The notes below the pieces were generated by a model that worked only from the letters and a program-made list of their open reading frames with translations, was not told where the DNA came from and made no database searches. The position numbers and the translations under genes are program-made. Positions 31,766 to 46,271 of a stretch of 64,000 nucleotides of DNA are shown one piece after another (the first letter of the stretch is position 1; every line of letters starts with the position of its first letter). This DNA comes from an uncultured Syntrophaceae bacterium (GTDB taxonomy: Bacteria > Desulfobacterota > Syntrophia > Syntrophales > UBA2192), in NCBI GenBank assembly GCA_964429555.1, contig CAYSDD010000001.1:15627-79626 (forward strand), given 5' to 3'.

Positions 31766-31803
31766 CAACAATGCCAATTCCCGAGGGGGAAGGAGGAAAA
31801 GAG

Positions 31804-33849
31804 ATGATTCGCATGAGCAGGGGAGTCGTCGTTTTGTGTCTTCTCGCGCTGGCCGTCACGGCCTCTCCCGGGCTTGCACGGGCCCAGGCGTCGCCGGACA
31901 CTGCCCGGCCCGAGTACCGGATGGGCGAGGTGGTCGTCACGGCCACCCGCGACGCCCAGGAGGTGCGCAAGGTCCCGGCCAACGTGACGGTGATCACGGC
32001 CGAGGATATCCAGAATTCGGGCGCCACGAGCGTTCCCGAGGTGCTGACGGGCCTCGTGGGCATCAACGTCACCAGCTACAGCGGCAACGCCTCGCAGTCC
32101 ATCGTGGACATGAGGGCGTTCGGCACGGAGGCGGGTTACCTTCGCCACGTGGTCCTGCTGGACGGCCGGCGCCTGAACCGCCCCGACATTGCCGGGGTCA
32201 ACTGGCTCGAGATCCCGCTGTCGGAGATCGAGCGCATCGAGGTGGTGCGCGGGGCAAGCAATGTGCTGTACGGGGATGCCGCCATCGCCGGCGCCATCAA
32301 CATCATCACCAAGCGTGGCGAGGGGAAGCCCAAGGGGGATGTAACCTTCATCGGGGGGAGCTACAACACGTACAACGGACGCGCCGGCATTCGGGGCTCG
32401 GCGGACAAGCTCTACTATGCGCTGAGCGGCGAGGGCCTCACGACGAGCGGCTACCGGGACCGCTCCAAGTTCACCACGGAAGGCGCGGGCGGCTCGGTCG
32501 GCTACAACCCCAGCGATGCCCTCGACGTCTCCCTGGGGATCACCTACAACAAGACCGACAACCAGTTCCCGGGCGCCCTGACGGCGGCCCAGCTCGCGTC
32601 CAACCGCCGGCAGGCCCAGAACCCCGACGACGACGCCAGCTCGAGCTTCTTCGACGCCAACCTACTCGTCAAAACCGTCCTGGGCCCCTACGGACGCCTC
32701 GACGGCAACTTGATCTACGGCAGGCGGGAGGTGACCTCCAACTATTCCTCCTTTGCCTCCTTCACGAAGATCGGCATCGACACGGTGGGCGCCACCCCAC
32801 GCTACATCCTCGACAGGAAGCTCTTCGGCTTCGACAACAAGCTCACCGTCGGCGTCGACTTCTACCGGGATCAGCTCGACAAGGACACCTTCTCGAGCCG
32901 CTCGCAGGCGGTGAGAACCTACGAGGCGGAACTGAAGCGCCGGACCGCGGGTCTTTACGCCCGCGACGAGTTCAGCATCCTGAAGGATCTCATCCTGGCG
33001 CTCGGCGCACGGACGGAGCGGGCCGACGTCGACGGCAGCGAAACGAATCTGGGCACGGGCGTGAAGGTCTTCGACGCCGAGAAGGTCCACAAGGGGACGG
33101 CCTGGGAGGGCTCGCTGACATATCTCTTCGGCCAGAAGGCGAAGGCCTGGGCCAAGTACGCAACGATCTACCGTTTCCCTTCGCTCGATCAGCAGGCCTC
33201 CTACTACGCCTTCCCCTTCGACAGCTTCCTGACGGACCTCGAGAAGGAAACGGGCAAGAGTTACGAGGTGGGCACGCAGGCAAGCCCCCTGAAGGACCTC
33301 AAGCTGGGGCTCACGTTCTACCTCATCGACATGGAGGACGAGATCAGCTACAACCCCGTCACATTCCGCAACGAGAACCTCGACAAGACGAGGCACCGGG
33401 GCGTCGAGTTCACGCTGGACTGGCAGTTCCGGAACGTGGCGCGCCTCCTGGCCAACTACACGTTCCAGGAGGCCTTCTTCCGCGAGGGGGCGAACAAGAA
33501 CAAGGACGTCCCCTTGGTGCCGAACCACATGGCGAACGGGGCCCTGGAAATTTATCTTCCCTGGAACCTCACGCTGCGGCCCGAGGTCCGGTACGTGGGC
33601 GATCAGTACTTCGGCTCCGACATCGACAACAGCTCGACGAAGCTCGACAGCTATATGATTGTCAACCTCTATTTGAGATACCAGCCCGACTGGAAGATGT
33701 TCGGGGTCGCGAAGCCGACGGCTTTCGTGGGGGTGGAAAACCTCTTCAACAAGAGCTACGTCCCCGTGGGGTATGAGACCTTCTCGGGGCTGAGCTATTA
33801 CCCCGCGCCGGAGATGAACTTCCGGGGAGGAATCTCCCTGTATTTCTGA
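31804..33849 (+). CDS. btuB: TonB-dependent outer-membrane receptor (BtuB-like by riboswitch context)
   Basis: The protein has a signal peptide, the TonB box and plug (GEVVVTATRDAQEVRKVPANVTVITAEDIQNSGA), and the C-terminal beta-barrel terminus MNFRGGISLYF. Confidence 0.85.
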   Translation: MIRMSRGVVVLCLLALAVTASPGLARAQASPDTARPEYRMGEVVVTATRDAQEVRKVPANVTVITAEDIQNSGATSVPEVLTGLVGINVTSYSGNASQSIVDMRAFGTEAGYLRHVVLLDGRRLNRPDIAGVNWLEIPLSEIERIEVVRGASNVLYGDAAIAGAINIITKRGEGKPKGDVTFIGGSYNTYNGRAGIRGSADKLYYALSGEGLTTSGYRDRSKFTTEGAGGSVGYNPSDALDVSLGITYNKTDNQFPGALTAAQLASNRRQAQNPDDDASSSFFDANLLVKTVLGPYGRLDGNLIYGRREVTSNYSSFASFTKIGIDTVGATPRYILDRKLFGFDNKLTVGVDFYRDQLDKDTFSSRSQAVRTYEAELKRRTAGLYARDEFSILKDLILALGARTERADVDGSETNLGTGVKVFDAEKVHKGTAWEGSLTYLFGQKAKAWAKYATIYRFPSLDQQASYYAFPFDSFLTDLEKETGKSYEVGTQASPLKDLKLGLTFYLIDMEDEISYNPVTFRNENLDKTRHRGVEFTLDWQFRNVARLLANYTFQEAFFREGANKNKDVPLVPNHMANGALEIYLPWNLTLRPEVRYVGDQYFGSDIDNSSTKLDSYMIVNLYLRYQPDWKMFGVAKPTAFVGVENLFNKSYVPVGYETFSGLSYYPAPEMNFRGGISLYF

Positions 33850-33886
33850 CGGGCCGCGGGCGACAGAGGATCCGGGCAGGCGAATC

Positions 33887-34693
33887 ATGAACGTCACGAC
33901 GTGGAGAAGGGAAGGCCCCGCTGACCTTGGCCTGGCTGTCGACGGGCCGGCGGAGCTCTCCGCGCGTCAGCCTTTGCGGCGCCGCGGCAGGGGCATGCTC
34001 CCCGGGATCGCCCTGTCCGCGGTTCTCCATGCGGCCGTCCTTGCGCTCGTCCTGTTTGCCGTGGCAAACCCCTTCATCGGGTTCCCGACGGACGGTGACG
34101 AGGGGATCGTCCGGGTCTCGCTCGTGACGGTCACAGCGGGGCCTGACAACGGCGCACCGGCACCGCCGGAGGCTAAGACCAGACAGGTCCGGGCGGCAAA
34201 GGCGGACCCCGTCGCGGTTCAGAAGGCCATGGAGAACACCGTCATCGCCGAAGCAGCCGATCGTCGCGCGGCCGAGCGGCAGGAGGCGGTGACGAGCATT
34301 GCCGTCGAGCCCGCCCGGTTGCAGGCGTCTGCGGGACGCGGCACGGCCGCGGGCGAGGCGGCCCGGGGGCAGCGGCAGGCGGGCTCAGCGCAGGAAGGCT
34401 ACTCGGAGGCCATGCCCCGCTACCGCGAGAACCGGCCCCCCGTGTACCCCGGCCTGGCGAGGCAGAGGGGGTACGAGGGCGATGTGCTGATCGCGGCCGA
34501 GGTCCGGTCCGACGGGCGCATCGGGGCCGCCCGCATCAAGCGCTCCTCGGGCTACGCTTCCCTGGACCAGTCGGCCCTCGAGGCCGTGCGGGGATGGCGG
34601 TTCGAGCCGGCAAGGCGGATGGGCAGCCCCGTGGACGCCTGGGTGGAGATTCCCATCCGCTTCAAACTCTCGCCGCATGACTCGTTCATGTAA
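33887..34693 (+). CDS. tonB: TonB-family energy transducer
   Basis: The protein has a TM anchor GIALSAVLHAAVLALVLFAV, an Ala/Pro-rich linker, and the C-terminal TonB domain YPGLARQRGYEGDVLIAAEVRSDGRIGAARIKRSSGYASLDQSALEAVRGWRFEPA. Confidence 0.75.
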   Translation: MNVTTWRREGPADLGLAVDGPAELSARQPLRRRGRGMLPGIALSAVLHAAVLALVLFAVANPFIGFPTDGDEGIVRVSLVTVTAGPDNGAPAPPEAKTRQVRAAKADPVAVQKAMENTVIAEAADRRAAERQEAVTSIAVEPARLQASAGRGTAAGEAARGQRQAGSAQEGYSEAMPRYRENRPPVYPGLARQRGYEGDVLIAAEVRSDGRIGAARIKRSSGYASLDQSALEAVRGWRFEPARRMGSPVDAWVEIPIRFKLSPHDSFM

Positions 34694-34764
34694 TCGCTGA
34701 GTAAAGGCGGACAGAATTACTCCTGCACCCTGGGGAGACTGAAGCTAAGAAGCCAGGCAGCGGG

Positions 34765-34832
34765 GAAGTTCGGAGAAGCCCGAGCTTGCGTTCGACCATA
34801 AGCTCGTCCAGACTTCAGAGCTTCTCAACTTC
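34765..34832 (+). repeat. Extended three-segment hairpin after tonB (terminator-like; member of a loose family)
   Basis: GAAGTT/AACTTC (6 bp), GAGAAGC/GCTTCTC (7 bp) and CGAGCTT/AAGCTCG (7 bp) are nested helices, followed by a T-rich tract. Confidence 0.4.
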
Positions 34833-34914
34833 ACAACTTCTCTTTGATTCGTTCATAAGTGCCCGTCCTGCAATGGTTTCAAGGGGCTCCCGGCGGCACC
34901 GTGAAAAAATTCTG

Positions 34915-34943
34915 TTGACAGCGACTCCCAATCGTGTTTTCAT
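34915..34943 (+). promoter_or_regulatory. Sigma-70-like promoter candidate of the aro leader
   Basis: TTGACA-N17-TTTCAT has a perfect -35 and a weak -10. It would place the TSS about 20 nt before the leader ATG. Confidence 0.35.
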
Positions 34944-34971
34944 GGGTCACTTTTTGAAGGAATCGCTCGTG

Positions 34972-35058
34972 ATGGACAGCACCCACATCCGTAATTTTGG
35001 CTTCTGGTTTAGCTATTATTTTTACGGACAGGTCTGCCCGTCGCTGAGGAGGACTTAG
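34972..35058 (+). CDS. Aromatic-rich leader peptide [28 protein letters not shown] (28 aa)
   Basis: This is the 3' part of track ORF 34786..35058. GAAGGAA lies 9 nt upstream of ATG 34972. Eight of ten consecutive codons are Phe/Trp/Tyr, and an intrinsic terminator follows immediately. Confidence 0.7.
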
Positions 35059-35082
35059 GCACGAAAGAATAAGCCGAACCAA

Positions 35083-35126
35083 AGCCATGGGTAGATCGAA
35101 AGACGCTGCCCATGGCTTTTTTGTTT
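35083..35126 (+). terminator. Attenuator terminator upstream of DAHP synthase
   Basis: AGCCATGGG-tagatcgaaagacgctg-CCCATGGCT followed by TTTTTTGTTT. It lies 66 nt upstream of the aroF ATG. Confidence 0.8.
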
Positions 35127-35191
35127 CTCCTTCTCCCCGGGCCATGAGGGCGGCAGCCATCATGGCCTTTTTCATTGGAGGTGACGGAATC

Positions 35192-36217
35192 ATGATTATC
35201 GTGATGAAGAAAAACGCAACGGACGGGCAGGTCGACCGGGTCGTCGAGTGGATCGAATCGGTCGGCTACCGTGCCCACCTGTCCCGTGGGACGGAAAAAA
35301 CGATTATCGGCGCTGTGGGGGATGCCCGCGGACGTGAGCAGATCAAGTCCGTCGCGCACCTGCCGGGCGTGGAAAGCGTCGTTCCCATCCTCAAGCCCTA
35401 CAAGCTCGCCAGCCGCGAGTTCCAAGAGAAAGACACGGTCGTGCGCGTGGGCGCGCTCGGGATCGGCGACGGCTCCTTCACCGTCATGGCGGGGCCCTGC
35501 GCCGTCGAGACGGAGGAGCAGCTCATGGAATGCGCCTGGGTGGCGAAGAAGGCGGGGGCCCACATCCTGCGCGGCGGAGCCTTCAAGCCCAGGACCTCGC
35601 CCTACAGCTTCCAGGGACTTGAGGAGGCGGGCCTCAAGCTCCTGAAGATGGTCCGCGAGCGGACGGGGCTCCCCGTGGTGACGGAGGTGGTCAACCCGGC
35701 CGACGTCGACCTCGTCGAGGCCTACGCCGACATCCTCCAGATCGGCGCCCGCAACGTCCAGAACTTCGCCCTGCTGAAGCGGGTCGGGCAGGCCCGAAAG
35801 CCCGTCCTGCTCAAGCGGGGCATGATGACGACCATCGAGGAGCTCCTCATGTCGGCCGAGTACATCCTCTCCGAGGGCAACGCCGATGTGATCCTCTGCG
35901 AGCGCGGCATCCGGACCTTCGAGACGGCCACGCGCAACACGCTCGACATCTCCGCCGTCGTCGTCCTCAAGCAGCTCTCCCACCTGCCGGTCATCGTGGA
36001 CCCGAGCCACGCGGCGGGTCACTGGAAGTACGTCGCCCCCCTGGCCCGGGCGGCCGTGGCCGTCGGGGCCGACGGGATCATCGTCGAGGTTCACCCCGAG
36101 CCCGAGAAGGCCGTCTCCGACGGGATGCAGTCCCTGAAGCCCGAGAAGTTCTACCAGCTCATGGAGGACATCGGGGTCCTCGAGAGGGCCATGCGGGAAG
36201 TGAGGACCGTGTCATGA
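35192..36217 (+). CDS. aroF: 3-deoxy-7-phosphoheptulonate (DAHP) synthase, type I-beta with N-terminal ferredoxin-like regulatory domain
   Basis: [26 protein letters not shown]... is an ACT/FL-like N-terminus, as in the Thermotoga-type enzyme. It is followed by [12 protein letters not shown]...[18 protein letters not shown] and IVDPSHA. Confidence 0.9.
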
Positions 36218-37308
36218 ACCGGATCCGCGTGAACCTCGACAGGCGCCTGAGCGCGAGCTACGACATCCACATCGGCCGCGGCATCCTGGACCGCATGGCG
36301 CTGATCCTCGCCAAGGGCAACTGGGCGGGGCGCTGGTTCATCGTCACCGACGAGACCGTTGCGGGCCTGCACGGCGGCCGCGTGCTCGAAGCGCTGGCCG
36401 GCGCGGGGCTCGGGGCCGAGCGCCTGACGATCCCCCCCGGCGAGGGGGCCAAGACCGTCTCGACCTGCCTGGGGCTTGCCGAAGATCTCCTGGAACGAGG
36501 CGCCGACCGGGCCTCGGGGCTCATCGCCCTGGGCGGCGGGGTGGTGGGCGACGTGGCGGGCTTCCTGGCCTCCATCTACATGCGGGGCATCCCATGCGTG
36601 CAGGTGCCCACGACGCTGCTGGCGCAGGTGGACAGCTCCATCGGGGGCAAGACCGGCGTGGACACAGGGGCGGGAAAGAACCTGCTCGGGACCTTCCACC
36701 AGCCGAGGGCCGTCTTCATCGACCTCGGCTTCCTCGAGACCCTCCCGCAGAGGGAGTTCACGAGCGGCCTGGCCGAGATCGTCAAGTACGGGATCATCGA
36801 AGACCCGGACCTGCTGGCGGCCCTCGAGGACAACGCCGCAGCCCTGCAGGGGCGGGACCCCGCCATCCTGGAGCGGGTCGTCTCGTCGTCGTGCCGCATC
36901 AAGAAGGGCATCGTCGAGATCGACGAGACGGAGAAGGGCCTGCGCCGCATCCTCAATTTCGGCCACACCCTGGGCCATGCCGTCGAGGCGGAGTCCGGCT
37001 ACGCCGTTTCCCACGGCGAGGCCGTGGCGATCGGGATGGCCGCCGCGGCGGCGATCTCGGAGCGGCTGCGCTACCTCAATGCCGAGGACCGGGAACGCAT
37101 CGAGAGGGCCATCGAGCGCGTGGGCCTGCCGCGCCTCATCCCCCGGGAGCTCGACGCGGGCAGGATCCTTGCACGGATGGAGAAGGACAAGAAGAAGGTG
37201 AACGGGCGGATTCACTTCGTCCTGCTCAAGAAACCCGGCATGCCCTTCGTCAACGGAGGCGTGCCGCTCGACGTGGTGCGGGAGACGGTCGAGGCGATGC
37301 GGTCATGA
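36214..37308 (+). CDS. aroB: 3-dehydroquinate synthase
   Basis: ...[46 protein letters not shown]...NFGHTLGHA. Its start overlaps the aroF stop. Confidence 0.9.
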
Positions 37309-38384
37309 AACGAAGGGACATCGAAGACATCCGGCGCGGGATCCGGGACAGGGACCGCCGGCTCGTGAGGCTCCTGAACGATCGCGCCCGGCTCTCCGTC
37401 GAGATGGGCCGGATCAAGGCCGACGCCGGGCTCGGCGTCTTCGACCCGGTGCAGGAGCGCAGGGTCCTCGACGGGATCGCGTCCCTGGGCGAGGGACCGC
37501 TGTCCGCGGAAGCCCTGCGGAACATCTGGCGCGAGATCCTGTCGGCCTCGCGCGCCCTGCAGGCGCCCCTCGCGGTGGCCTGCCTGGGCCCGGAGGGGTC
37601 CTTCGCACACCTGGCGGCCCTCGAGCGCTTCGGCAGGAGCACGCGCCTGGCGCCGCAGGTGACGATCGGCGCCGTCTTCGATGCCGTGGAGAAGCGCCGG
37701 AGCGACCTCGGCGTCGTTCCCCTGGAGAACTCCGTGGAGGGGCCCGTGCGGACTACGCTGGAGCGGCTCATCTCGACGCCCCTGGCGATCCGGGGCGAGA
37801 TCTGCCTGCGCGTCTCCCACTGCCTGCTGGCGAAGGGAGCCAGGGGGCGGATCCGCAGGGTCTACTCCCACCCCCAGGCGCTGGCCCAGTGCCGGCAGTG
37901 GCTGGCGCGGAACCTGCCCCAGGCCGTCCCCGTCGAGACGGAGAGCACCTCGGCGGCCGTGCTGCAGGCGCGCGGCGACCGGCAGGGGGCGGCCATCGCG
38001 AGCCGCCTGGCCTCGGAGATCCACGGGCTTCCCGTCGTCGAGGCGGGCATCGAGGACCACCCGGCCAATACGACGCGCTTCATCGTCATCGGGACGGGCT
38101 CGAACGGGCCGACGGGCCGGGACAAGACCTCCGTCCTCTTCTCGACGCAGCACCGGCCCGGGGCGCTGTACGCGGCCTTGGCGCCCTTCGCGGCGGCGGG
38201 GATCAACCTGCTGCGCATCGAGTCCCACCCGGCGCGGGACCGGATGTGGCAGTACCTGTTCTTCGTCGACCTCGAGGGGCACGCGGGGGACCGGGCCGTG
38301 AGGGACAGCCTGCGCAAGCTCAGGCGCAAGACGGCCTTTCTGAAGGTGCTGGGGTCGTACCCCCGGGAGGTGGAGCCCTCATGA
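37305..38384 (+). CDS. pheA: Bifunctional chorismate mutase / prephenate dehydratase (P-protein)
   Basis: The N-terminal CM_2 domain is IRRGIRDRDRRLVRLLNDRARLSVEMGRIK. The PDT domain is VACLGPEGSFAHLAA...NTTRF, and the ACT domain is TSVLFSTQHRPGALYAAL. The start ATGA overlaps aroB. Confidence 0.9.
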   Translation: MKRRDIEDIRRGIRDRDRRLVRLLNDRARLSVEMGRIKADAGLGVFDPVQERRVLDGIASLGEGPLSAEALRNIWREILSASRALQAPLAVACLGPEGSFAHLAALERFGRSTRLAPQVTIGAVFDAVEKRRSDLGVVPLENSVEGPVRTTLERLISTPLAIRGEICLRVSHCLLAKGARGRIRRVYSHPQALAQCRQWLARNLPQAVPVETESTSAAVLQARGDRQGAAIASRLASEIHGLPVVEAGIEDHPANTTRFIVIGTGSNGPTGRDKTSVLFSTQHRPGALYAALAPFAAAGINLLRIESHPARDRMWQYLFFVDLEGHAGDRAVRDSLRKLRRKTAFLKVLGSYPREVEPS

Positions 38385-39061
38385 TCTGCATCTCCGTCGT
38401 GCCCGCGACCAACGAGGAGGCCCTGTCGCTGCTGGGACGGGCCCTGCCCCTGGCCGAGCTCGTGGAGCTGCGGATCGACCGGATCGAAAAGCCGGAGCTC
38501 CCGATGCTGCTGTATGCCGGAAGGGAACGGATCGTCGTGACGAACCGCCGGCGCGACGAGGGCGGCTTCTTCGCGAGCTGCGAGACCCGCCGCCTGGAGC
38601 TTCTCCACGAGGCCGTCGAGCTGGGGGCCCGATTCGTGGACGTCGAGCAGCGCACGGGCGCAAAGGCCGTGGGGAGGCTTGCCGATGCGGTCCGGTCCCG
38701 GGGCGGAAGGACGGGGCTCATCGTGTCGCACCACGACCTGGCGGGCACGCCCTCCGCAAAGGCGCTGGCGGCAAGGCTGAGGGCCTGCCGGGCCCTCGGG
38801 GCCGACGTCGTGAAGATCGTGACCCTTGCGACCCGCGCGGAGGACAACCTCCGGGTCCTGGGGCTCCTGCCGCAGGCCCGGGAGATGGGACAGGACCTCG
38901 TCGCCTTCTGCATGGGCGAACAGGGGCGCCTGAGCCGGGTGGCGGCCCCGCTTCTCGGGTCCTGCTGGAGCTACGCGAGCCTCGAGAAGGGCGCCGCTTC
39001 GGCGCCGGGGCAGTTGACGGTCAGGGAGATGAGAACCATCCTGGGGATGCTGCAGTCGTGA
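38381..39061 (+). CDS. aroD: Type I 3-dehydroquinate dehydratase
   Basis: MICISVVPATNEEAL...VELRIDRI...IVSHHDLAGTP...DVVKIVTLA...FCMGEQGRLSRV. The start ATGA overlaps pheA. Confidence 0.85.
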   Translation: MICISVVPATNEEALSLLGRALPLAELVELRIDRIEKPELPMLLYAGRERIVVTNRRRDEGGFFASCETRRLELLHEAVELGARFVDVEQRTGAKAVGRLADAVRSRGGRTGLIVSHHDLAGTPSAKALAARLRACRALGADVVKIVTLATRAEDNLRVLGLLPQAREMGQDLVAFCMGEQGRLSRVAAPLLGSCWSYASLEKGAASAPGQLTVREMRTILGMLQS

Positions 39062-39081
39062 GGGCCGCCGTGGCGACAGGA

Positions 39082-39912
39082 ATGAGACACTTCGCACTTT
39101 TCGGGAACCCCGTGGGGCACAGCCTCTCGCCCCTGATGATCAACGCGGCCTTCGGGTCCATGGGGGTCCGCGCGGACTACGAGTCCCACCGCGTCGAGAA
39201 CCTGGAGCTCGCGGTCCGGATGATCCGCGAGCGTCCGCTCGACGGCGTGAGCGTGACCCTGCCTCTGAAGGGGGCCATCATGGCCTTCCTCGACGAGGTG
39301 GACGACGACGCCCGGGCCATCGGGGCCGTCAACACCGTGACCAACGAGCGCGGCTGGCTCAAGGGCTCGAACACGGACTGGACGGGCCTCTTGGCCGCCA
39401 TGCAGGAGCATTTTCCCCTCGCGGGAAGGACGGTCGCCGTGCTGGGCGCGGGCGGCGCCGCGCGGGCCGCCGTCTACGCGATCCTCCGGGCGGGGGGGAC
39501 CCCGATCGTCTTCAACCGGAGCCGCGACAGGGCCGAGTCCCTCGCCCGGTGGTTTTCGTGCGAGACACGGCCGCTGGCCGGTCTGGGGAGGACGGAGGCG
39601 GATGTCCTGATCAATGCGACCCCCGTCGGGATGCACCCCGACACGGGGGAATCCCCCGTGGACGGGCGTCACCTGGCCCGGTTCGAGTGGGTCGTGGAGA
39701 CGATCTACAACCCCCTCGAGACGCGCCTGCTCCGGGAGGCCCGGGCCGCGGGATGCGGTGTCGTCACGGGGCTCGCCATGTTCGTCCGCCAGGGGGCGGA
39801 GCAGATCCGCACCTGGACGGGGCTCGAGCCCCCGGTCGAGCTGATGACGCGCGTGGTGCGGACGACCCTGGCGCAAAACCGGGCCCGGGGTGAAGGGCAA
39901 AGAGAAACGTGA
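39082..39912 (+). CDS. aroE: Shikimate dehydrogenase
   Basis: MRHFALFGNPVGHSLSPLMINAAF...NVTLPLK...GAVNTV...NTDWTG...VLGAGGAARA. The alternative start is GTG 39058, which overlaps the aroD stop. Confidence 0.85.
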   Translation: MRHFALFGNPVGHSLSPLMINAAFGSMGVRADYESHRVENLELAVRMIRERPLDGVSVTLPLKGAIMAFLDEVDDDARAIGAVNTVTNERGWLKGSNTDWTGLLAAMQEHFPLAGRTVAVLGAGGAARAAVYAILRAGGTPIVFNRSRDRAESLARWFSCETRPLAGLGRTEADVLINATPVGMHPDTGESPVDGRHLARFEWVVETIYNPLETRLLREARAAGCGVVTGLAMFVRQGAEQIRTWTGLEPPVELMTRVVRTTLAQNRARGEGQRET

Positions 39913-39935
39913 AAGGGAGCCATGGGGAAGAGGCG

Positions 39936-41216
39936 ATGATCGACGTGAAGGAAATCAGGCCGCTGGCGGCTGTGAAGGCCGCGGTGCAGGTCCCCGGCTC
40001 GAAGAGCTTCACCCAGCGCGCCCTCGTCGCGGCGTCGCTTGCCGAGGGGACGTCGCTGCTGCGCAATGCGCTGATCGCGGAGGACACGGGTCACCTCGTC
40101 GGGGCGCTGCGCCTGCTGGGCGCGCAGATCGTCAACTCCGGCCCCGACGTGATCGTCACGGGCACGGGGGGCCGCATCGCGAACCCCGGCCGGGAGCTGT
40201 ACCTGGGCAGCAACGGGACAGCCATGCGGTTTCTCGCCGGTGTTGCGGCCACCGGGCCCGGCGAGATCACCCTCACGGGGGATGCGAGGCTCTGCGAGCG
40301 GCCCCTGAAGCCGCTGCTCGACGCGATCGGCAGCCTCGGCGTGTCCAGCGAATGCCGAAACGTCCCGGGCTATCCCCCGGTCACGATCCGCGGAGGCACC
40401 ATGCACGGCGGGCGTGCCGTCTTCCAGGACATCGAGAGCAGCCAGTATGTCTCCTCGATCCTGCTGGCGGCCCCCTACGCCGCGGGGGACGTGGAGGTCG
40501 AGATCCGCGGCTCCGCCGTCTCGCGTCCCTACGTGGAGATGACCCTCGCGACGATGAAGGCCTTCGGCGTCGCCGTGGAGAAGAGATCCGAGGCCCTCTT
40601 CACCGTGCGCAGCGGCCAGCGCTACCGGGCCTGCCGGTATCTCGTGGAAGGGGACCTGTCGAGCGCGTCCTATTTCTTCCTCGCCGCGGCCCTCTGCGGC
40701 GGAACGGTCCGCGTGGCGAACACGAACTTCTGGACCCACCAGGGGGACGTGCGCTTCCTCCGTTTCCTCAAGGAGCTCGGCTGCGGCGTTGCGGCCACGG
40801 ACCAGTGGATCGAGGTGTCGGGCGGGAGACTCGCGCCCGGCGATTTCACGGCCTCCATGGAGGACGTCCCCGACATGGTCCCGACGATGGCCGTTCTGGC
40901 GGCCCTGAGGCCGGGAAGGACGTTCATCCGCAACGTGCCGCACCTGCGTCTCAAGGAGAGCAATCGCCTGGCGGCCCTCGTCAGCGAGCTTTCGAAGACG
41001 GGCATACGCGCCGCGGAACTCGAGGACGGCCTCGTCGTCACGGGCGGGACGCCCCGGGGGGCGGAGATCGAAACCTACAACGATCACCGGATCGCCATGA
41101 GCTTCGCCGTGCTGGGGCTCGTCGCACCGGGCATGCGGATCCGCAACCCCGGCTGCGTGGGGAAATCCTTCCCCGGCTTCTGGGACGAACTCGAAAAGCT
41201 GTACCGGGCCGCTTGA
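39936..41216 (+). CDS. aroA: 3-phosphoshikimate 1-carboxyvinyltransferase (EPSP synthase)
   Basis: ...VQVPGSKSFTQRALVAASLAEG...LGSNGTAMRFL...DHRIAMSFAVLGL. The alternative start is GTG 39909. Confidence 0.9.
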   Translation: MIDVKEIRPLAAVKAAVQVPGSKSFTQRALVAASLAEGTSLLRNALIAEDTGHLVGALRLLGAQIVNSGPDVIVTGTGGRIANPGRELYLGSNGTAMRFLAGVAATGPGEITLTGDARLCERPLKPLLDAIGSLGVSSECRNVPGYPPVTIRGGTMHGGRAVFQDIESSQYVSSILLAAPYAAGDVEVEIRGSAVSRPYVEMTLATMKAFGVAVEKRSEALFTVRSGQRYRACRYLVEGDLSSASYFFLAAALCGGTVRVANTNFWTHQGDVRFLRFLKELGCGVAATDQWIEVSGGRLAPGDFTASMEDVPDMVPTMAVLAALRPGRTFIRNVPHLRLKESNRLAALVSELSKTGIRAAELEDGLVVTGGTPRGAEIETYNDHRIAMSFAVLGLVAPGMRIRNPGCVGKSFPGFWDELEKLYRAA

Positions 41217-41232
41217 TCTCCAAAACCGCAGT

Positions 41233-41270
41233 CTCTCTCCCCCGGCGGGAGAGGGTTCAGGTGAGGGGCC
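41233..41270. repeat. Intergenic hairpin + G-rich motif (copy 2 of the 1519-1560 motif)
   Basis: CTCTCCC-ccggc-GGGAGAG followed by GGTTCAGGTGAGGGG, in the aroA-aroK gap. Confidence 0.4.
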
Positions 41271-41289
41271 TGTAAGTTTGAAGGCTGAA

Positions 41290-41856
41290 ATGAATATTAT
41301 CCTGATCGGGTACCGCGGGAGCGGCAAGACATCCGTCGGAAGGAAACTGGCGAGGCTCCTGGGGAGGCCCTTTTTCGACTCGGACCGGATGGTCTTTGCG
41401 AAGACGGGAAGGACCGTCCGCGAGATCGTCGAGGCGGGGGGGTGGCCTGCCTTTCGCGAGGCGGAAAAGGCCGTGATCGCCGAGCTCTCCGCCCTCGACC
41501 AGGCCGTCATCTCGCTGGGCGGCGGCGCGGTCATGGACCCCGAGAATGTCACGGCGCTCAGGGAGCGGGGGAAATTCGTGTGGCTCAGGGCCGACGCGAG
41601 GACCCTTGCCGGCAGGATCCGCAACGACGAAAGCGGCGCGGGTCAGCGGCCGTCCCTCACCGGGGCGGGAACGCTGGAAGAGGTAGAGAGGGTGCTGGCG
41701 GAGCGCCTGCCGGTGTACCGTGCCGTGGCCGATCTGGCCGTCGACACGGCGGGAAAGTACCCCGAGGCCATTGCCGCGGAGATTGCCGGCGCGCTGTCGG
41801 GGAGCCCGGCCCGGCGGCGGGTAAAGAAAGACGGGAGGAGGCCGCATGTCCGGTAA
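41290..41856 (+). CDS. aroK: Shikimate kinase
   Basis: [32 protein letters not shown] contains a P-loop; ...GGGAV...; basic C-terminal tail. Confidence 0.85.
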
Positions 41857-42898
41857 CACCTTCGGCGTGCTCTTCAGGGTCACCACGTTCGGGGAGTCCC
41901 ACGGTCCCGGCCTCGGCGCCGTCATCGACGGCTGCCCGCCGGGCATCGATCTCGTCGATGCCGACATCCAGGACGAGCTGGACCGCCGCCGGCCGGGGGG
42001 ACACGCCGCGTCCACCCCCAGGCGGGAGGAGGACCGCGTGGAGATCCTCTCGGGGGTGTTCGAGGGGAAAACGACGGGGACGCCGATCGCCCTTTTGATC
42101 CGCAACCTGGACATAGACAGCAGCGCCTATGAAGAGCTGCGGGAGGTCTTCCGCCCCGGGCACGGGGACTTCACCTACATGAAGAAATACGGCATCCGGG
42201 ACCACCGCGGTGGCGGCCGCGCCTCGGGGCGTGAGACCGCTGCGCGCGTGGCGGCCGGGGCCGTCGCCCGCAGGATCCTGGCGCGCGAGGGGATCGCCGT
42301 GTCGGGCTGCACGGTGGAGCTGGGCGGCATTGCGATCGAGACGCGTTCCGAAGCGGCGGCCGGCTCGAACCGCCTGCGGTGCCCCGACCCGGCGGCGGCG
42401 GCACGGATGGAGGCCCTGCTCGAGGAGGCCAGGCGCGCAGGCGACACCCTCGGCGGCATCGTGGAGGTGCGCGTGACCGGCTGCCCGGCCGGGCTCGGCG
42501 AGCCCGTCTTCGACAAGATGGACGCAGACCTCGCGAAGGCCCTCATGGGCATCGGGACGGTGAAGGGCGTGGAGATCGGCGCGGGGTTCCAGGCGGCTCG
42601 GCTGAGGGGATCGCAGTGCAACGACCCCCTCGGGCCCGGCGGGTTCGGGACGAACCGCGCGGGCGGGGTCCTCGCCGGGATCACGACGGGGCAGGAGATC
42701 GTGATCCGCGCGGCCTGCAAGCCGATTGCCTCGATCGCCCTGGAGCAGGGCACGATCGACGTCCACGGGAACCCGAAAACGATCTCCGTGCGGGGCAGGC
42801 ACGACGCCTGCGTCATCCCGCGCGTGATCCCCGTCTGCGAGGCCATGGTGTGCCTGGTCGTTGCAGATCACCTGCTCAGACAAAAGGCAAACCGATGA
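41846..42898 (+). CDS. aroC: Chorismate synthase
   Basis: [33 protein letters not shown]...RPGHGDFTY...[18 protein letters not shown]. Confidence 0.9.
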
Positions 42899-43746
42899 AG
42901 AACACCGGAACCCCCATCTCCCCCCCGGAGCGTTTCCCCATCGGCATCATCGGGGGCACGGGCGGCATGGGCCGCTGGTTCGCCGCATTCTTCGAGAAGG
43001 AGGGCCACCCGGTCATCGTCTCGGGAAAGGGCACGGGCCCGCGCCCGGACGAGATGGCGGCGTCCTGCCCCGTCGTCATCGTGAGCGTGCCCATCGGGGC
43101 GACGATTGAGGTCATCCGGCAGGTGGGCCCGCACATGAAGCGGGATTCGCTCCTCATGGACCTGACGTCCCTGAAGGCTGAACCGGTGCGGGCCATGCTC
43201 GAATCGTCGGTCTCGGAGGTCATCGGCCTGCACCCGCTGTTCGGCCCGGGAGTGCCCTCCCTGGAGGGGCAGAACGTCGTCCTCTGCCCGGCAAGGGGCG
43301 ACAGATGGCTCCCCTGGGTTCGGGATGTCCTTGTGAAAGGTGGCGCGAATCTAATCGAGACGACGCCGGAGCGACACGACGAGATCATGGCCGTCGTCCA
43401 GGCGCTCAATCATTTCGACACGATCGTCCTGGGCCTTGCGATCCGCCGAAGCGGCATTGCGCGGGAGGTCCTGGAAGCCTTTTCCACACCCTTGTTCCGG
43501 GGGAAACTGGCGATGATCGACAGGGTATTTTCCCATCCGGAACTCCATACGGAGATCATCACGGCAAACCCGCATGCAGCAGGGATGATCGATCTCTATG
43601 GGCAGATCCTTGACAGGGTCGGACGGGTTGCCATAGAAGGAAATGCCGCGGATCTGGCGGCACTCATGCGGCCGGAAGAACCCGATGAAAAAAACGTGAT
43701 CCCTGTCGTTACGTTGTCAGAAAGACGCGCTTCGGACCTGCCGTAA
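42895..43746 (+). CDS. tyrA: Prephenate dehydrogenase
   Basis: [18 protein letters not shown] is a Rossmann motif; ...LMDLTSLK...GLHPLFGP...[18 protein letters not shown]. The start ATGA overlaps aroC. Confidence 0.85.
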
Positions 43747-44285: not shown

Positions 44286-44393
44286 AGAGAAGGTAAGAAG
44301 GTGAGAGGGTAAGAACGTTGGATGAGCCGATAGCTGTCTTCACGCTCTCCGCTTCTCCAACCTTCCCACCTTCATACCCTCTTACCCTCTGCC
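44286..44393. repeat. Long imperfect hairpin with a purine-rich 5' arm and pyrimidine-rich 3' arm
   Basis: agagaaggtaagaaggtgagagggtaagaacgttgg pairs with ccaaccttcccaccttcataccctcttaccctct. It lies between the ogt stop and the trp promoter. Confidence 0.4.
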
Positions 44394-44469
44394 TTTGCAT
44401 CCGGGCATTTAGACTAGCCTGGGTGAAACCCTTTCCCGAAAGGGCCGCAAAGGGCGCAAATAAACCGGG

Positions 44470-44498
44470 TTGACAGGCGGCGGAAAGCTTGCTATAAG
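44470..44498 (+). promoter_or_regulatory. Sigma-70-type promoter of the trp leader
   Basis: TTGACA-N17-TATAAG, about 25 nt upstream of the leader ATG. Confidence 0.65.
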
Positions 44499-44521
44499 TG
44501 CGCTCAGTTGGAGAAAGAATA

Positions 44522-44599
44522 ATGTTCAGCGAGATCCTTTCGAAAAACAGCTGGTGGTGGCGCAACTTCATAGGAGGGGTTTGCCTGCTGCCGGTATGA
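44522..44599 (+). CDS. trpL: trp operon leader peptide MFSEILSKNSWWWRNFIGGVCLLPV (25 aa)
   Basis: Not in the ORF track. GGAGAAAG lies upstream, there are three consecutive TGG codons at 44552-44560, and an intrinsic terminator follows. Confidence 0.8.
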   Translation: MFSEILSKNSWWWRNFIGGVCLLPV

Positions 44600-44618
44600 C
44601 GTGAAGAAGTGAAATCCA

Positions 44619-44661
44619 GGCCGTGGGGGACCCCGGAGGTGCCCCACGGCTTTTTTGTTTT
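44619..44661 (+). terminator. trp attenuator terminator
   Basis: GCCGTGGGG-gaccccggaggtg-CCCCACGGC followed by TTTTTTGTTTTT. Confidence 0.85.
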
Positions 44662-44683
44662 TAGCGTATTGCAGGAATCAGGA

Positions 44684-44710
44684 GGCCGTGCCGGGAGCAC
44701 GGCCTTTTTC
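44684..44710 (+). terminator. Second tandem hairpin + T-run downstream of the trp attenuator
   Basis: GGCCGTGC-cggga-GCACGGCC followed by TTTTTC. Its arms share GCCGTG/CACGGC with the first terminator. Confidence 0.6.
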
Positions 44711-44718
44711 ATTTCAGG

Positions 44719-44756
44719 GATTAAATCCCCCTCTTTCCCCCTTTGGGAAAGGGGGA
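44719..44756. repeat. C-run/G-run hairpin repeat, copy a
   Basis: gattaaatccccctctttCCCCCTTTgggAAAGGGGGa lies immediately upstream of the trpE RBS. Confidence 0.5.
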
Positions 44757-44774
44757 AGCACGGAAGGAAGAAAA

Positions 44775-46271
<1,497 letters not shown>

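Follow-up and report, generated by a model that had tools for sequence, protein, structure and literature searches.

What governs transcription of a nine-gene block whose products are chorismate, phenylalanine and tyrosine is the question raised by this locus, which lies in a 64-kb stretch of DNA (the window, meaning the whole stretch analysed) and in which the block is preceded by a short open reading frame (ORF) crowded with aromatic codons. One way to answer it is to read the upstream region as a ribosome-mediated leader-peptide transcription attenuator of the Syntrophales aromatic amino-acid operon; sequence comparison and predicted folding give this reading a probability of about 0.85. 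The argument begins with the following parts.

34915..34943, + strand: putative promoter; -35 TTGACA at 34915-34920, 17-nt spacer ending in TG, -10-like TTTCAT at 34938-34943 (extended -10-like)
34956..34962, + strand: leader Shine-Dalgarno GAAGGAA, 9 nt 5' of the leader ATG
34972..35058, + strand: leader ORF; ATG at 34972, 28 codons, then TAG at 35056-35058
34996..35025, + strand: candidate regulatory codon run; eight of ten codons aromatic (four Phe, one Trp, three Tyr)
35047..35052, + strand: AGGAGG (Arg-Arg codons), Shine-Dalgarno-like, just 5' of the leader stop and conserved at the nucleotide level
35177..35194, + strand: Shine-Dalgarno (GGAGG, 35177-35181) and start (ATG, 35192) of the DAHP synthase gene (DAHPS)
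35192..43746, + strand: operon of DAHPS, aroB, pheA, aroD, aroE, aroA, aroK, aroC and tyrA, by Pfam matches

The first-pass annotation had placed the TTGACA box, the leader Shine-Dalgarno sequence, the leader ORF and the DAHPS start at these positions, had counted eight aromatic codons in ten, and had described the operon as the common shikimate pathway plus pheA and tyrA; all of this holds, and the Pfam content agrees (DAHPS joins a ferredoxin-like regulatory domain to DAHP_synth_1; pheA is of CM-PDT-ACT form). The genes abut or overlap and are presumably co-transcribed. Transcription would start near 34950, about 20 nt 5' of the leader ORF. A simple consensus scanner did not call the promoter, because its -10 lacks an A at position 2; nor did it call the terminator T1 described below, because an internal loop interrupts that hairpin and its apical region exceeds the scanner's limit of 3-8 nt.

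The codon run is singular within the window: a site with at least seven aromatic codons in ten occurs nowhere else in the six frames of the 64 kb, and in none of 50 shuffles. The run uses TTT over TTC by 3:1 and TAT over TAC by 2:1, as against TTC over TTT by 91:10 and TAC over TAT by 60:14 in the window's genes; the run is enriched for TTT and TAT, the rare member of each synonymous pair.

The comparison set comprised 80 related Syntrophales genomes or loci, with detailed leader and RNA counts made on 76 sequences. The earlier annotation had made its case depend on persistence of the aromatic run in relatives, and about 75 of the 80 loci have an aromatic-rich leader equally far from DAHPS. 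The promoter, Shine-Dalgarno sequence, ORF, codon run and terminator are all kept across the Syntrophales: a TTGAC(A) box and a TGn-extended -10-like element (TTTTAT/TTTCAT) lie 5' of 76/76 leaders, and purine-rich, Shine-Dalgarno-like motifs precede the leader start in relatives too. Homologous leaders are 22-36 aa long, with the same frame over the segment called R2 below in 75/76. Their N-termini are variable, and F/W/Y composition is kept while residue order is not; at the nucleotide level likewise, the region 5' of R2 is variable except for codon composition. Phe, Trp and Tyr are all present in 70 of the 76 leaders (per-leader means 3.0 F, 1.4 W and 3.7 Y); most have just one or two Trp codons, and five of the 76 have none.

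Between the codon run and DAHPS lie segments with overlapping capacities to pair, numbered R1 to R4, whose helices are written 1:2, 2:3 and so on.

34966..34980, + strand: R1, candidate anti-antiterminator strand, CTCGTGATGGACAGC, lying over the leader start codon; partner of R2 in the minimum-free-energy (MFE) fold
35031..35045, + strand: R2, 5' strand of the predicted antiterminator, GGTCTGCCCGTCGCT, in the V-C-P-S-L codons; mimics the 3' arm of T1 and pairs with R1 or R3
35081..35122, + strand: T1, predicted attenuator terminator, AAAGCCAUGGGUAG...CUGCCCAUGGCUUU at 35081-35119, with a U-run at 35117-35122
35081-35097, + strand: R3, 5' arm of T1, AGCCATGGGTAGATC, which doubles as the 3' strand of the antiterminator
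35106-35119, + strand: R4, 3' arm of T1, which pairs with R3

An intrinsic terminator after the leader ORF had been proposed from inspection, and folding, covariation and the U-tract all agree with it. The T1 fold has z = -4.0, with none of 200 shuffles as good; among relatives 95.8% of cells in the helix are paired, with 24 compensatory cells (0/500 shuffles), T1 is present in the RNAalifold consensus, and a mean of 7.8 U is found in the 9 nt after the stem.

The antiterminator was likewise seen in part at the outset, as a pairing of the end of the leader ORF, CCCGTCGCT (35037-35045), with the 5' arm of T1, AGCCATGGG (35083-35091). The helix extends to 15 positions (35031-35045 with 35083-35097), of which 14 pair and one is a C.C mismatch. 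In 76/76 sequences no upstream segment pairs better with the T1 5' arm than R2 does, and 92.5% of cells in the 2:3 helix are paired, against 24-44% when the strands are slid. The distal part of R3 differs among paralogous classes of attenuator (GUAGAUC, GUGAGCC, GCGGACG), and R2 changes to match: cells with a double change across these classes number 36, against 10.6 +/- 2.7 in shuffled comparisons (0/500). A second pairing noted at the same time, of GGCTTCTGGTT (34999-35009) with AACCAAAGCC (35077-35086), exists in the window without being conserved; it was rejected, being only 60.8% paired in relatives (37/500 shuffles as good) and close to the value of the +1 slide, and a stalled ribosome would cover it.

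R1 does not appear in the first-pass annotation, and its assignment as an anti-antiterminator is made with moderate confidence. In 59/76 sequences the upstream strand that pairs best with R2 takes in all or part of the start codon (mean dG -18.4, mean z -1.9). Of the cells in the 1:2 helix 74.7% pair; sliding the strands lowers this to 32-54%, 5/500 shuffles do as well, and the helix is weakly supported in the Smithella clade. R1 appears to be conserved as RNA, because in one relative (L018) the strand holds a stop codon and lies outside the ORF. It carries no regulatory codons, unlike segment 1 of the sister trp leader in this window, and that a ribosome stalled in the 1:2 loop would exclude 1:2 is for that reason an assumption.

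The mean duplex energies of the three alternatives are balanced (1:2, -19.4; 2:3, -18.5; 3:4, -22.8), and the mutually exclusive structures on which the earlier claim depended appear when folding is followed by length: RNA ending at 35060 gives 1:2, RNA to 35100 gives 2:3, and RNA to 35122 gives 1:2 plus 3:4. Masking a 30-nt ribosome footprint alone was uninformative, as R1 then pairs with R2 across the ribosome and termination is always predicted; it was replaced by blocking everything 5' of the ribosome. When R1 is blocked, 2:3 is less stable than 3:4 by only 1-6 kcal/mol, a situation like that of E. coli trp. Equilibrium stability favours the terminator state in every case; therefore, the switch must be kinetic.

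These parts suggest the following cycle. With no ribosome on the leader, R1 would pair with R2 and R3 with R4, forming T1, and transcription would stop at about 35119-35123. A ribosome translating smoothly to the stop codon, which lies 10 nt after R2, would cover R2; T1 would again form and transcription stop. If charged tRNA-Phe, tRNA-Tyr or (probably) tRNA-Trp were scarce, the ribosome would stall in the aromatic run, where the first codon of each kind lies 17-35 nt 5' of R2; the stalled ribosome would keep R1 off R2, R2 would pair with R3 as it emerged, T1 would be blocked, and polymerase would read through into DAHPS...tyrA. The spacing in relatives fits a stall at aromatic codons that would free R2 and a ribosome at the stop that would mask it: the first F, W and Y codons lie at least 13 nt 5' of R2 in 75/75, 68/71 and 76/76 leaders, with median gaps of 5 nt from the last aromatic codon to R2 and 10 nt from the end of R2 to the stop (the ribosome footprint size used here is general knowledge). 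The conserved parts, the R2:R3 covariation and the alternative folds thus support the pheL/trpL type of architecture first suggested for this leader; termination, read-through and amino-acid specificity, especially for Trp, are predictions from them.

A further hairpin stands beyond T1, and the same arrangement recurs in an attenuator elsewhere in the window; the first-pass annotation had missed both.

35140..35172, + strand: H2, second terminator-like hairpin of the MFE folds; R5, GGCCATGAGGGC, pairs with R6, GCCATCATGGCC, with a U-run at 35168-35172
44522-44712: sister attenuator with a W-W-W leader, in the same window, in front of trpE

H2 is a covariation-supported, terminator-like hairpin present in all relatives: 76/76 have a GC-rich stem (9-12 bp) with 5-8 U behind it (mean 6.9 U in 9 nt), 99.7% of the core cells pair, eight pairs show 46 compensatory cells between them, and the hairpin is in the RNAalifold consensus. 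The GCCATGG core of T1 recurs in H2, R4 and the 5' arm of H2 are complementary, and in most relatives the end of H2 lies about 23-25 nt from the DAHPS ATG. In three loci (L052, L074 and L075) H2 and DAHPS are separated by an additional structured stretch of about 140 nt, for which Rfam gave no match.

H2 may be independent of leader translation, T1 being the sole regulated attenuator, and we would put this at a little under an even chance; it is compatible with the attenuation reading of T1. H2 could then be a constitutive partial terminator setting maximal expression, a 5' hairpin that stabilises the RNA after processing, or a modulator of DAHPS translation; in the window's clade, the sequences flanking it can pair with the DAHPS Shine-Dalgarno sequence. 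One relative (L021) has no leader ORF and keeps an H2-like hairpin all the same. Covariation for R4:R5 was sought in the relatives and none was found, complementarity being kept by conservation and G.U pairs alone; variants of the T1 and H2 cores (A versus G) show no correlation among aligned orthologs. In the window itself R4:R5 contains a C.A mismatch, and 2:3 plus 4:5 is 9 kcal/mol worse than 2:3 plus 5:6. Against independence, however, a stem and U-run found in 76/76 sequences would block the operon's only visible promoter unless suppressed; about 90% of cells preserve the 8-bp complementarity between R4 and the 5' arm of H2; the mean dG of 4:5 (-19.2) is comparable to that of 2:3; and the sister trp attenuator has the same arrangement of T1 and H2, with a matching GCCGTG core in both hairpins.

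These last observations leave room for a coupled reading, which is put forward tentatively, as possible rather than probable: one stalling event would control two tandem intrinsic terminators through a five-helix relay (1:2, 2:3, 3:4, 4:5, 5:6), on a modular Syntrophales chassis with swapped codons. R4, freed when R2 pairs with R3, would pair with R5 and suppress H2, which lies 20 nt past T1. The logic is that of the his attenuator of Salmonella and E. coli, where segments A-F form A:B, C:D and E:F or else B:C and D:E, and only E:F is a terminator; the proposed alternatives here are likewise 1:2, 3:4 and 5:6 versus 2:3 and 4:5. It differs in that both 3:4 and 5:6 are followed by U-tracts, and in that the 4:5 relay is only proposed. 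If real, a double-terminator relay would multiply the tightness of the off state while one sensor suffices, and would be a compact design principle for attenuators of high dynamic range; no description of such a design for leader-peptide attenuators was found in the literature searched.

To return to T1, a protein or ligand rather than the ribosome might be supposed to govern it, through a riboswitch, a T-box, or a TRAP- or PyrR-like protein on the GCCAUGG hairpins, with the small ORF incidental or auxiliary. The GCCAUGG/CCAUGGC core is nearly invariant, repeated in T1 and H2, and common to the paralogous aromatic-pathway attenuators; plain terminators are seldom so alike in sequence, and the core could be the mark of a binding site. 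The overlapping pairings, however, in which R2 resembles R4 and R1 resembles R3, alone explain strong sequence conservation. No T-box or riboswitch aptamer or specifier structure was recognisable, and an Rfam scan of 34000-36000 and 44300-44900 at E up to 10 gave chance matches only (terminator-like TEG147, miRNAs, suhB). The ORF, its frame, its Shine-Dalgarno sequence, the position of its stop relative to R2 and its codon composition are all conserved, and the regulatory codons change with the downstream gene, as with WWW before trpE. Control of this kind is very unlikely.

The end of the leader peptide, VCPSLRRT, looks conserved as protein; the codons show that the constraint is on the RNA and not on the peptide, because the synonymous sites are frozen. 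Within R2, Val is GTC in 64/66 cases, Cys TGC in 73/75 and Ser TCG in 43/43, and Pro-to-Leu changes (CCR to CTR, 21/75) are tolerated with G.U pairing kept. At the AGGAGG site of the relatives' leaders, Arg is encoded by AGG in 44/47 and 50/51 cases and CGN does not occur; in the window's genes, by contrast, CGC and CGG dominate. One ortholog (L034) reads the R2 segment in a different frame, and paralogous leaders on the same chassis end in the unrelated RAHPCP, KSAHGRAG and VCLSVGRV and keep the R2:R3 complementarity. Selection at the amino-acid level, as expected of a TnaC/SecM-type peptide, was not seen in codons 21-28, which are conserved as nucleotides, and the codon evidence led to the rejection of a peptide-level function for this C-terminus. 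An arrest peptide of that type, in which V-C-P-S-L-R-R-T would stall the ribosome near the stop on free aromatic amino acid, is thus scarcely credible, for all that the eight residues, a Pro among the last of them, give a first impression of conservation and that AGGAGG before the stop codon could hold the ribosome; the shift of frame, the unrelated paralogous C-termini and an aromatic part conserved in composition only stand against it as well.

Ribosome-mediated attenuation, the preferred reading, is best known from Gammaproteobacteria and Actinobacteria. As in E. coli pheL-pheA and trpL-trpEDCBA, the Syntrophales leader is short and carries codons for the products; segments form 1:2, 2:3 and 3:4, with 3:4 the terminator; the stop is placed so that the ribosome would mask segment 2; and the choice between antiterminator and terminator would be kinetic. 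Unlike those systems, it mixes three amino acids, is followed by an extra terminator-like hairpin, and would govern the shikimate pathway together with pheA and tyrA, not a single terminal branch; its segment 1 lies over the start codon, not over regulatory codons as in the classical trp and phe leaders. Nor is there any sequence or covariance-model similarity between the E. coli leaders and those of this other taxon: Phe_leader (RF01859) and Trp_leader (RF00513) did not match either leader region even at E up to 10.

Multivalent leaders are themselves classical: the E. coli thr leader contains Thr and Ile codons and that of ilvGMEDA Leu, Val and Ile codons, and starvation for any one end product of the shared pathway relieves termination. 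The Syntrophales leader is alike in serving several end products from one leader, although its amino acids are different ones, the three made from the chorismate branch point, and its RNA is unrelated to theirs. It probably integrates the charging of all three aromatic tRNAs.

That such a mixed leader should precede DAHP synthase had been singled out as unusual, and here the earlier view needs correction: in Corynebacterium glutamicum the aroR leader (Phe-Tyr-Phe) precedes aroF, a DAHP synthase gene (Mentz et al. 2013, PMC4046766). The documented likeness is one of functional analogy. There are three aromatic codons in aroR, none of them Trp, and the phylum is unrelated; the Syntrophales leader has 7-9 aromatic codons including Trp, nine genes behind it, and tandem hairpins. 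Neshat et al. 2014, as summarised in PMC11802643, found that Phe limitation relieves attenuation at aroR and that Tyr availability has no effect; the presence of a codon is not proof of sensing, because the Tyr codon of aroR is one without such an effect. A search of the literature on leader peptides or attenuation with DAHP synthase, Deltaproteobacteria, Syntrophus or tandem terminators returned C. glutamicum aroR only, and an earlier in-silico mention is possible. The proposed mechanism is then classical, and the Syntrophales version is one for which, with the same reservation, no prior description was found.

Syntrophales are syntrophic anaerobes, rich in uncultured members, with essentially no experimental genetics; the comparison would extend leader-peptide attenuation to another phylum and offers a testable regulatory logic for their aromatic amino-acid synthesis. 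One leader would serve nine genes, those of the common pathway together with the Phe and Tyr branches, and the sister W-W-W leader the trp branch. About 100 aro-type leaders, with paralogs, have been collected, enough for a new RNA family model.

The paralogs carry the same chassis further. Metagenomes contain both Phe-run and Trp-run leaders built on it; downstream of the Phe-run leaders stand genes for an aminotransferase, an MBL-fold protein and a PaaK-like ligase, and downstream of the Trp-run leaders other genes, including one for a putative outer-membrane channel (Phenol_MetA_deg). As read from these sequences, codon content tracks the regulated genes, and a GCCAUGG-based expression platform may have been reused with swapped codons: F/W/Y for the common pathway, WWW for trpE and the channel, runs of F elsewhere. 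The codon content of a paralog could accordingly be used to predict the function of the gene downstream; the aminotransferase and the PaaK-like ligase would be tied to Phe, and the Phenol_MetA_deg outer-membrane protein to Trp.

The first-pass annotation proposed that a leader peptide with mixed Phe, Trp and Tyr codons attenuates the shikimate operon. The leader elements it listed are all present on reading 34700-35400. The aro leader, that is, the aromatic-rich short ORF and hairpins between the promoter and the DAHP synthase (DAHPS) start at 35192, is laid out as follows:

34915-34920, + strand: -35 box TTGACA; TTTCAT follows after 17 nt, preceded by TG in an extended -10-like arrangement
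34956-34962, + strand: leader Shine-Dalgarno GAAGGAA
34972 (ATG) to 35056-35058 (TAG), + strand: leader ORF, 28 codons
34996-35025, + strand: aromatic codon run, codons 9-18
35081-35119, + strand: hairpin T1, 14 bp, AAAGCCAUGGGUAG...CUGCCCAUGGCUUU, running into UUUUUUG

The run is the sole case in the 64 kb, over all six frames, of at least seven aromatic residues per 10 codons, and a 7-of-10 stretch occurred in none of 50 shuffles. The T1 hairpin begins 22 nt past the leader stop codon, and the leader region folds far better than shuffled sequence (z = -4.0). The consensus scanner called neither the promoter, because its -10 lacks the canonical A, nor T1, because the hairpin has an internal loop. 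Pfam assignments give the downstream order as DAHPS, aroB, pheA, aroD, aroE, aroA, aroK, aroC and tyrA; these genes overlap or abut one another, the DAHPS carries a ferredoxin-like regulatory domain, and pheA is of CM-PDT-ACT type. Directly 5' of the promoter (31771-34693, + strand) lie genes for a TonB-dependent receptor (Plug and beta-barrel) and a TonB C-terminal-domain protein, which are unrelated to the attenuator.

A protein-guided scan, taking a single genome from each species, found 80 loci, without exception from Syntrophales, Syntrophaceae, Smithella or Syntrophus MAGs (DAHPS identity 73-96%). The aromatic-rich leader is conserved among them: about 75 have the small ORF 110-230 nt 5' of DAHPS, and three of the contigs without a clear one are truncated. 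Leaders range from 22 to 36 aa, vary at the N-terminus and contain on average 3.0 F, 1.4 W and 3.7 Y, with 70 of 76 having each of these residues; a TTGAC(A) box and a TGn-extended -10-like element precede every leader. Individual loci depart from this pattern. In one (L002), a tandem duplication of 23 nt within the run puts the leader out of frame, perhaps through misassembly or because the leader is decaying; in another, devoid of a leader ORF (L021), the upstream gene extends to a degenerate T1-like hairpin and an H2-like hairpin is kept. In three loci (L052, L074, L075) H2 is set apart from the DAHPS start codon by an additional insert of some 140 nt, which has strong hairpins (e.g. CCGGTCAAGGCGACGCCTTGA) and, at E up to 0.01, matches nothing in Rfam.

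Six conserved RNA segments stand out when 76 leader regions are aligned:

R1, consensus GAUGGRCAG, over the leader start codon
R2, GGUCUGCCCAUCGCU, in the V-C-P-S-L codons
R3 and R4, AGCCAUGGGUAGAUC and CUGCCCAUGGCU with a U-run, together terminator T1
R5 and R6, GGCCAUGGnGGC and GCCAUGGCC with a U-run, together the other hairpin, H2, some 24 nt upstream of the DAHPS start

R4 has a mimic in R2, and R3 has one in R1. T1 and H2 make up the RNAalifold consensus, with compensatory changes at 11 pairs; U-tracts follow both hairpins in all 76 sequences (mean 7.8 and 6.9 U per 9 nt).

Comparative support for each helix: alignment cells paired (in brackets, when slid); compensatory cells; shuffles as good; mean duplex energy in kcal/mol
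3:4 (T1): 95.8%; 24; 0/500; -22.8
5:6 (H2 core): 99.7%; 46; 0/500; -21.5
2:3 (antiterminator): 92.5% (24-44%); 10; 0/500; -18.5
1:2 (anti-antiterminator): 74.7% (32-54%); 42; 5/500 by covariation score and percentage paired, 22/500 by compensatory-cell count; -19.4
4:5 (proposed relay): about 90%; not above shuffles; not significant; -19.2

The five mean energies are balanced. The pairing of the ORF 3' end with the T1 5' arm, noticed by eye in the first-pass annotation, holds throughout: an unbiased duplex search of all sequence upstream of R3 chose R2 for all 76 sequences, and always in the same register. Among paralogs the distal part of R3 is class-specific (GUAGAUC, GUGAGCC, GUAGACG, GCGGACG or GUGGAUC), with matching changes at the leader ORF's 3' end; in a 63-sequence alignment including paralogs, double-sided changes number 36 vs 10.6 +/- 2.7 in shuffles, with the caveat that its register is anchored on the predicted R2:R3 duplex. 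This co-change is the strongest evidence for the antiterminator. The mutually exclusive structures also emerge, as the fold of the window sequence switches with transcript length: RNA ending at 35060 adopts 1:2, at 35100 2:3 (15 pairs), and at 35122 1:2 together with 3:4. Once all sequence 5' of the stalled ribosome is blocked, 3:4 is the more stable helix, ahead of 2:3 by 1-6 kcal/mol; the antiterminator thus has to prevail by forming earlier, as it likewise does in E. coli trp.

Classical attenuation at T1 is the best-supported model. In the median leader the aromatic codons end 5 nt short of R2 and the stop codon comes 10 nt past it, so that a ribosome which has reached the stop codon masks R2. 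Distances from R2 back to the first Phe, Trp and Tyr codons have medians of 32, 23 and 23 nt, and are at least 13 nt in 75/75, 68/71 and 76/76 leaders; R2 therefore stays free when a ribosome stalls at the first hungry codon, whichever of the three amino acids is scarce. Codon choice fits a stalling sensor that prefers rare, wobble-read codons: genes in the window (65.7% GC) favor TTC over TTT by 91:10 and TAC over TAT by 60:14, whereas its leader has TTT 3:1 and TAT 2:1 (five of seven Phe/Tyr codons rare), and across the 76 leaders about 76% of the codons for Phe and Tyr are TTT or TAT. Because R1 overlies the start codon and not the regulatory codons, exclusion of 1:2 would depend on the ribosome, or one trailing it, covering R1 or holding it physically apart.

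The C-terminus VCPSLRRT looks like a conserved peptide, yet its conservation reflects RNA constraint. Synonymous sites over R2 are frozen (Val GTC 64/66, Cys TGC 73/75, Ser TCG 43/43), Pro (CCR) becomes Leu (CTR) in 21 leaders with a G.U pair retained, and one locus (L034) translates the R2 nucleotides in another frame. Conservation of R1 is likewise at the RNA level: in L018 this segment lies upstream of the ORF and includes a stop codon. The two Arg codons before the stop (35047-35052) read AGGAGG in almost every relative, and CGN is never used there, unlike in the window's genes, where CGC and CGG predominate. This Shine-Dalgarno-like motif, kept at the nucleotide level, could serve to keep the terminating ribosome on R2, or pair elsewhere.

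A second attenuator of the same design lies about 900 nt after tyrA, ahead of trpE (Pfam; probable start 44776):

44470-44712, + strand: sister attenuator, TTGACA at 44470
44522-44599, + strand: leader encoding MFSEILSKNSWWWRNFIGGVCLLPV
44575-44593, + strand: partner of the WWW codons in a classical 1:2 helix
44618-44652, + strand: T1, GCCGTGGGG...CCCCACGGC and U6
44682-44705, + strand: H2, GGCCGTGC...GCACGGCC and U5

Its R2:R3 duplex is worth -22.9 kcal/mol, and it has no match to Rfam Trp_leader. A metagenome scan with T1 plus the H2 5' arm as pattern returned 120 loci, about 85 aro-type and about 24 with other leaders (e.g. L120, L200, L130, L106, L103, L114 and L118). Phe-run leaders (e.g. 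MQCGSFFFFFYFSRAHPCP) precede a class I/II aminotransferase or an MBL-fold protein; Phe/Gly leaders, a PaaK-like AMP-binding ligase; and Trp-run leaders (..GWWWW..), a Phenol_MetA_deg outer-membrane protein or a 452-aa PALP (perhaps TrpB2-like) enzyme. These links suggest roles in Phe and Trp supply for the genes concerned. The regulatory codons track the downstream gene on a constant expression platform, as ribosome-mediated attenuation predicts; an RNA sensing a protein or ligand would not predict this. Since the pattern required its 5' arm, finding H2 among the metagenome loci is in part circular; no such bias touches the H2 hairpins of the 76 genome loci or of the trp leader in the window.

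The aro leader works like the pheL and trpL leaders and the multivalent thr and ilv leaders, and has, beside a putative anti-antiterminator (1:2), the other computationally testable defining features of leader-peptide attenuators. A mixed aromatic leader before DAHPS, singled out at first as unusual, has one experimental precedent, C. glutamicum aroR (Phe-Tyr-Phe), reported to respond to Phe and not to Tyr (Neshat et al. 2014, via PMC11802643; Mentz et al. 2013, PMC4046766). Searches of both leader regions placed neither the aro nor the trp leader in any Rfam family, and the literature searched on Syntrophales or delta-proteobacteria generally yielded no such leader; an earlier mention, above all in comparative-genomics work, is possible. 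The family, undescribed in that literature, is well supported, and useful for annotation and an RNA family model; its mechanism will not surprise a specialist. Tandem relay terminators on a modular chassis are a possible architectural variant.

H2, downstream of T1 and ahead of the sole gene start near the promoter, looks like a strong terminator, and must therefore be bypassed when the operon is on. The natural route would be a relay like that of the his attenuator, in which R4, released by 2:3, pairs with R5. The R4:R5 complementarity is conserved, without covariation, and a C.A mismatch weakens it in the window; the relay is judged somewhat less likely than not. In the minimum-free-energy fold, a pyrimidine tract after T1 (UUUCUCCUUCUCC, 35120-35135) pairs with the DAHPS Shine-Dalgarno region (GGAGGUGACGGAA, 35177-35189), enclosing H2; found in the window and its closest relatives and not kept in more distant ones, this pairing may add a translational layer.
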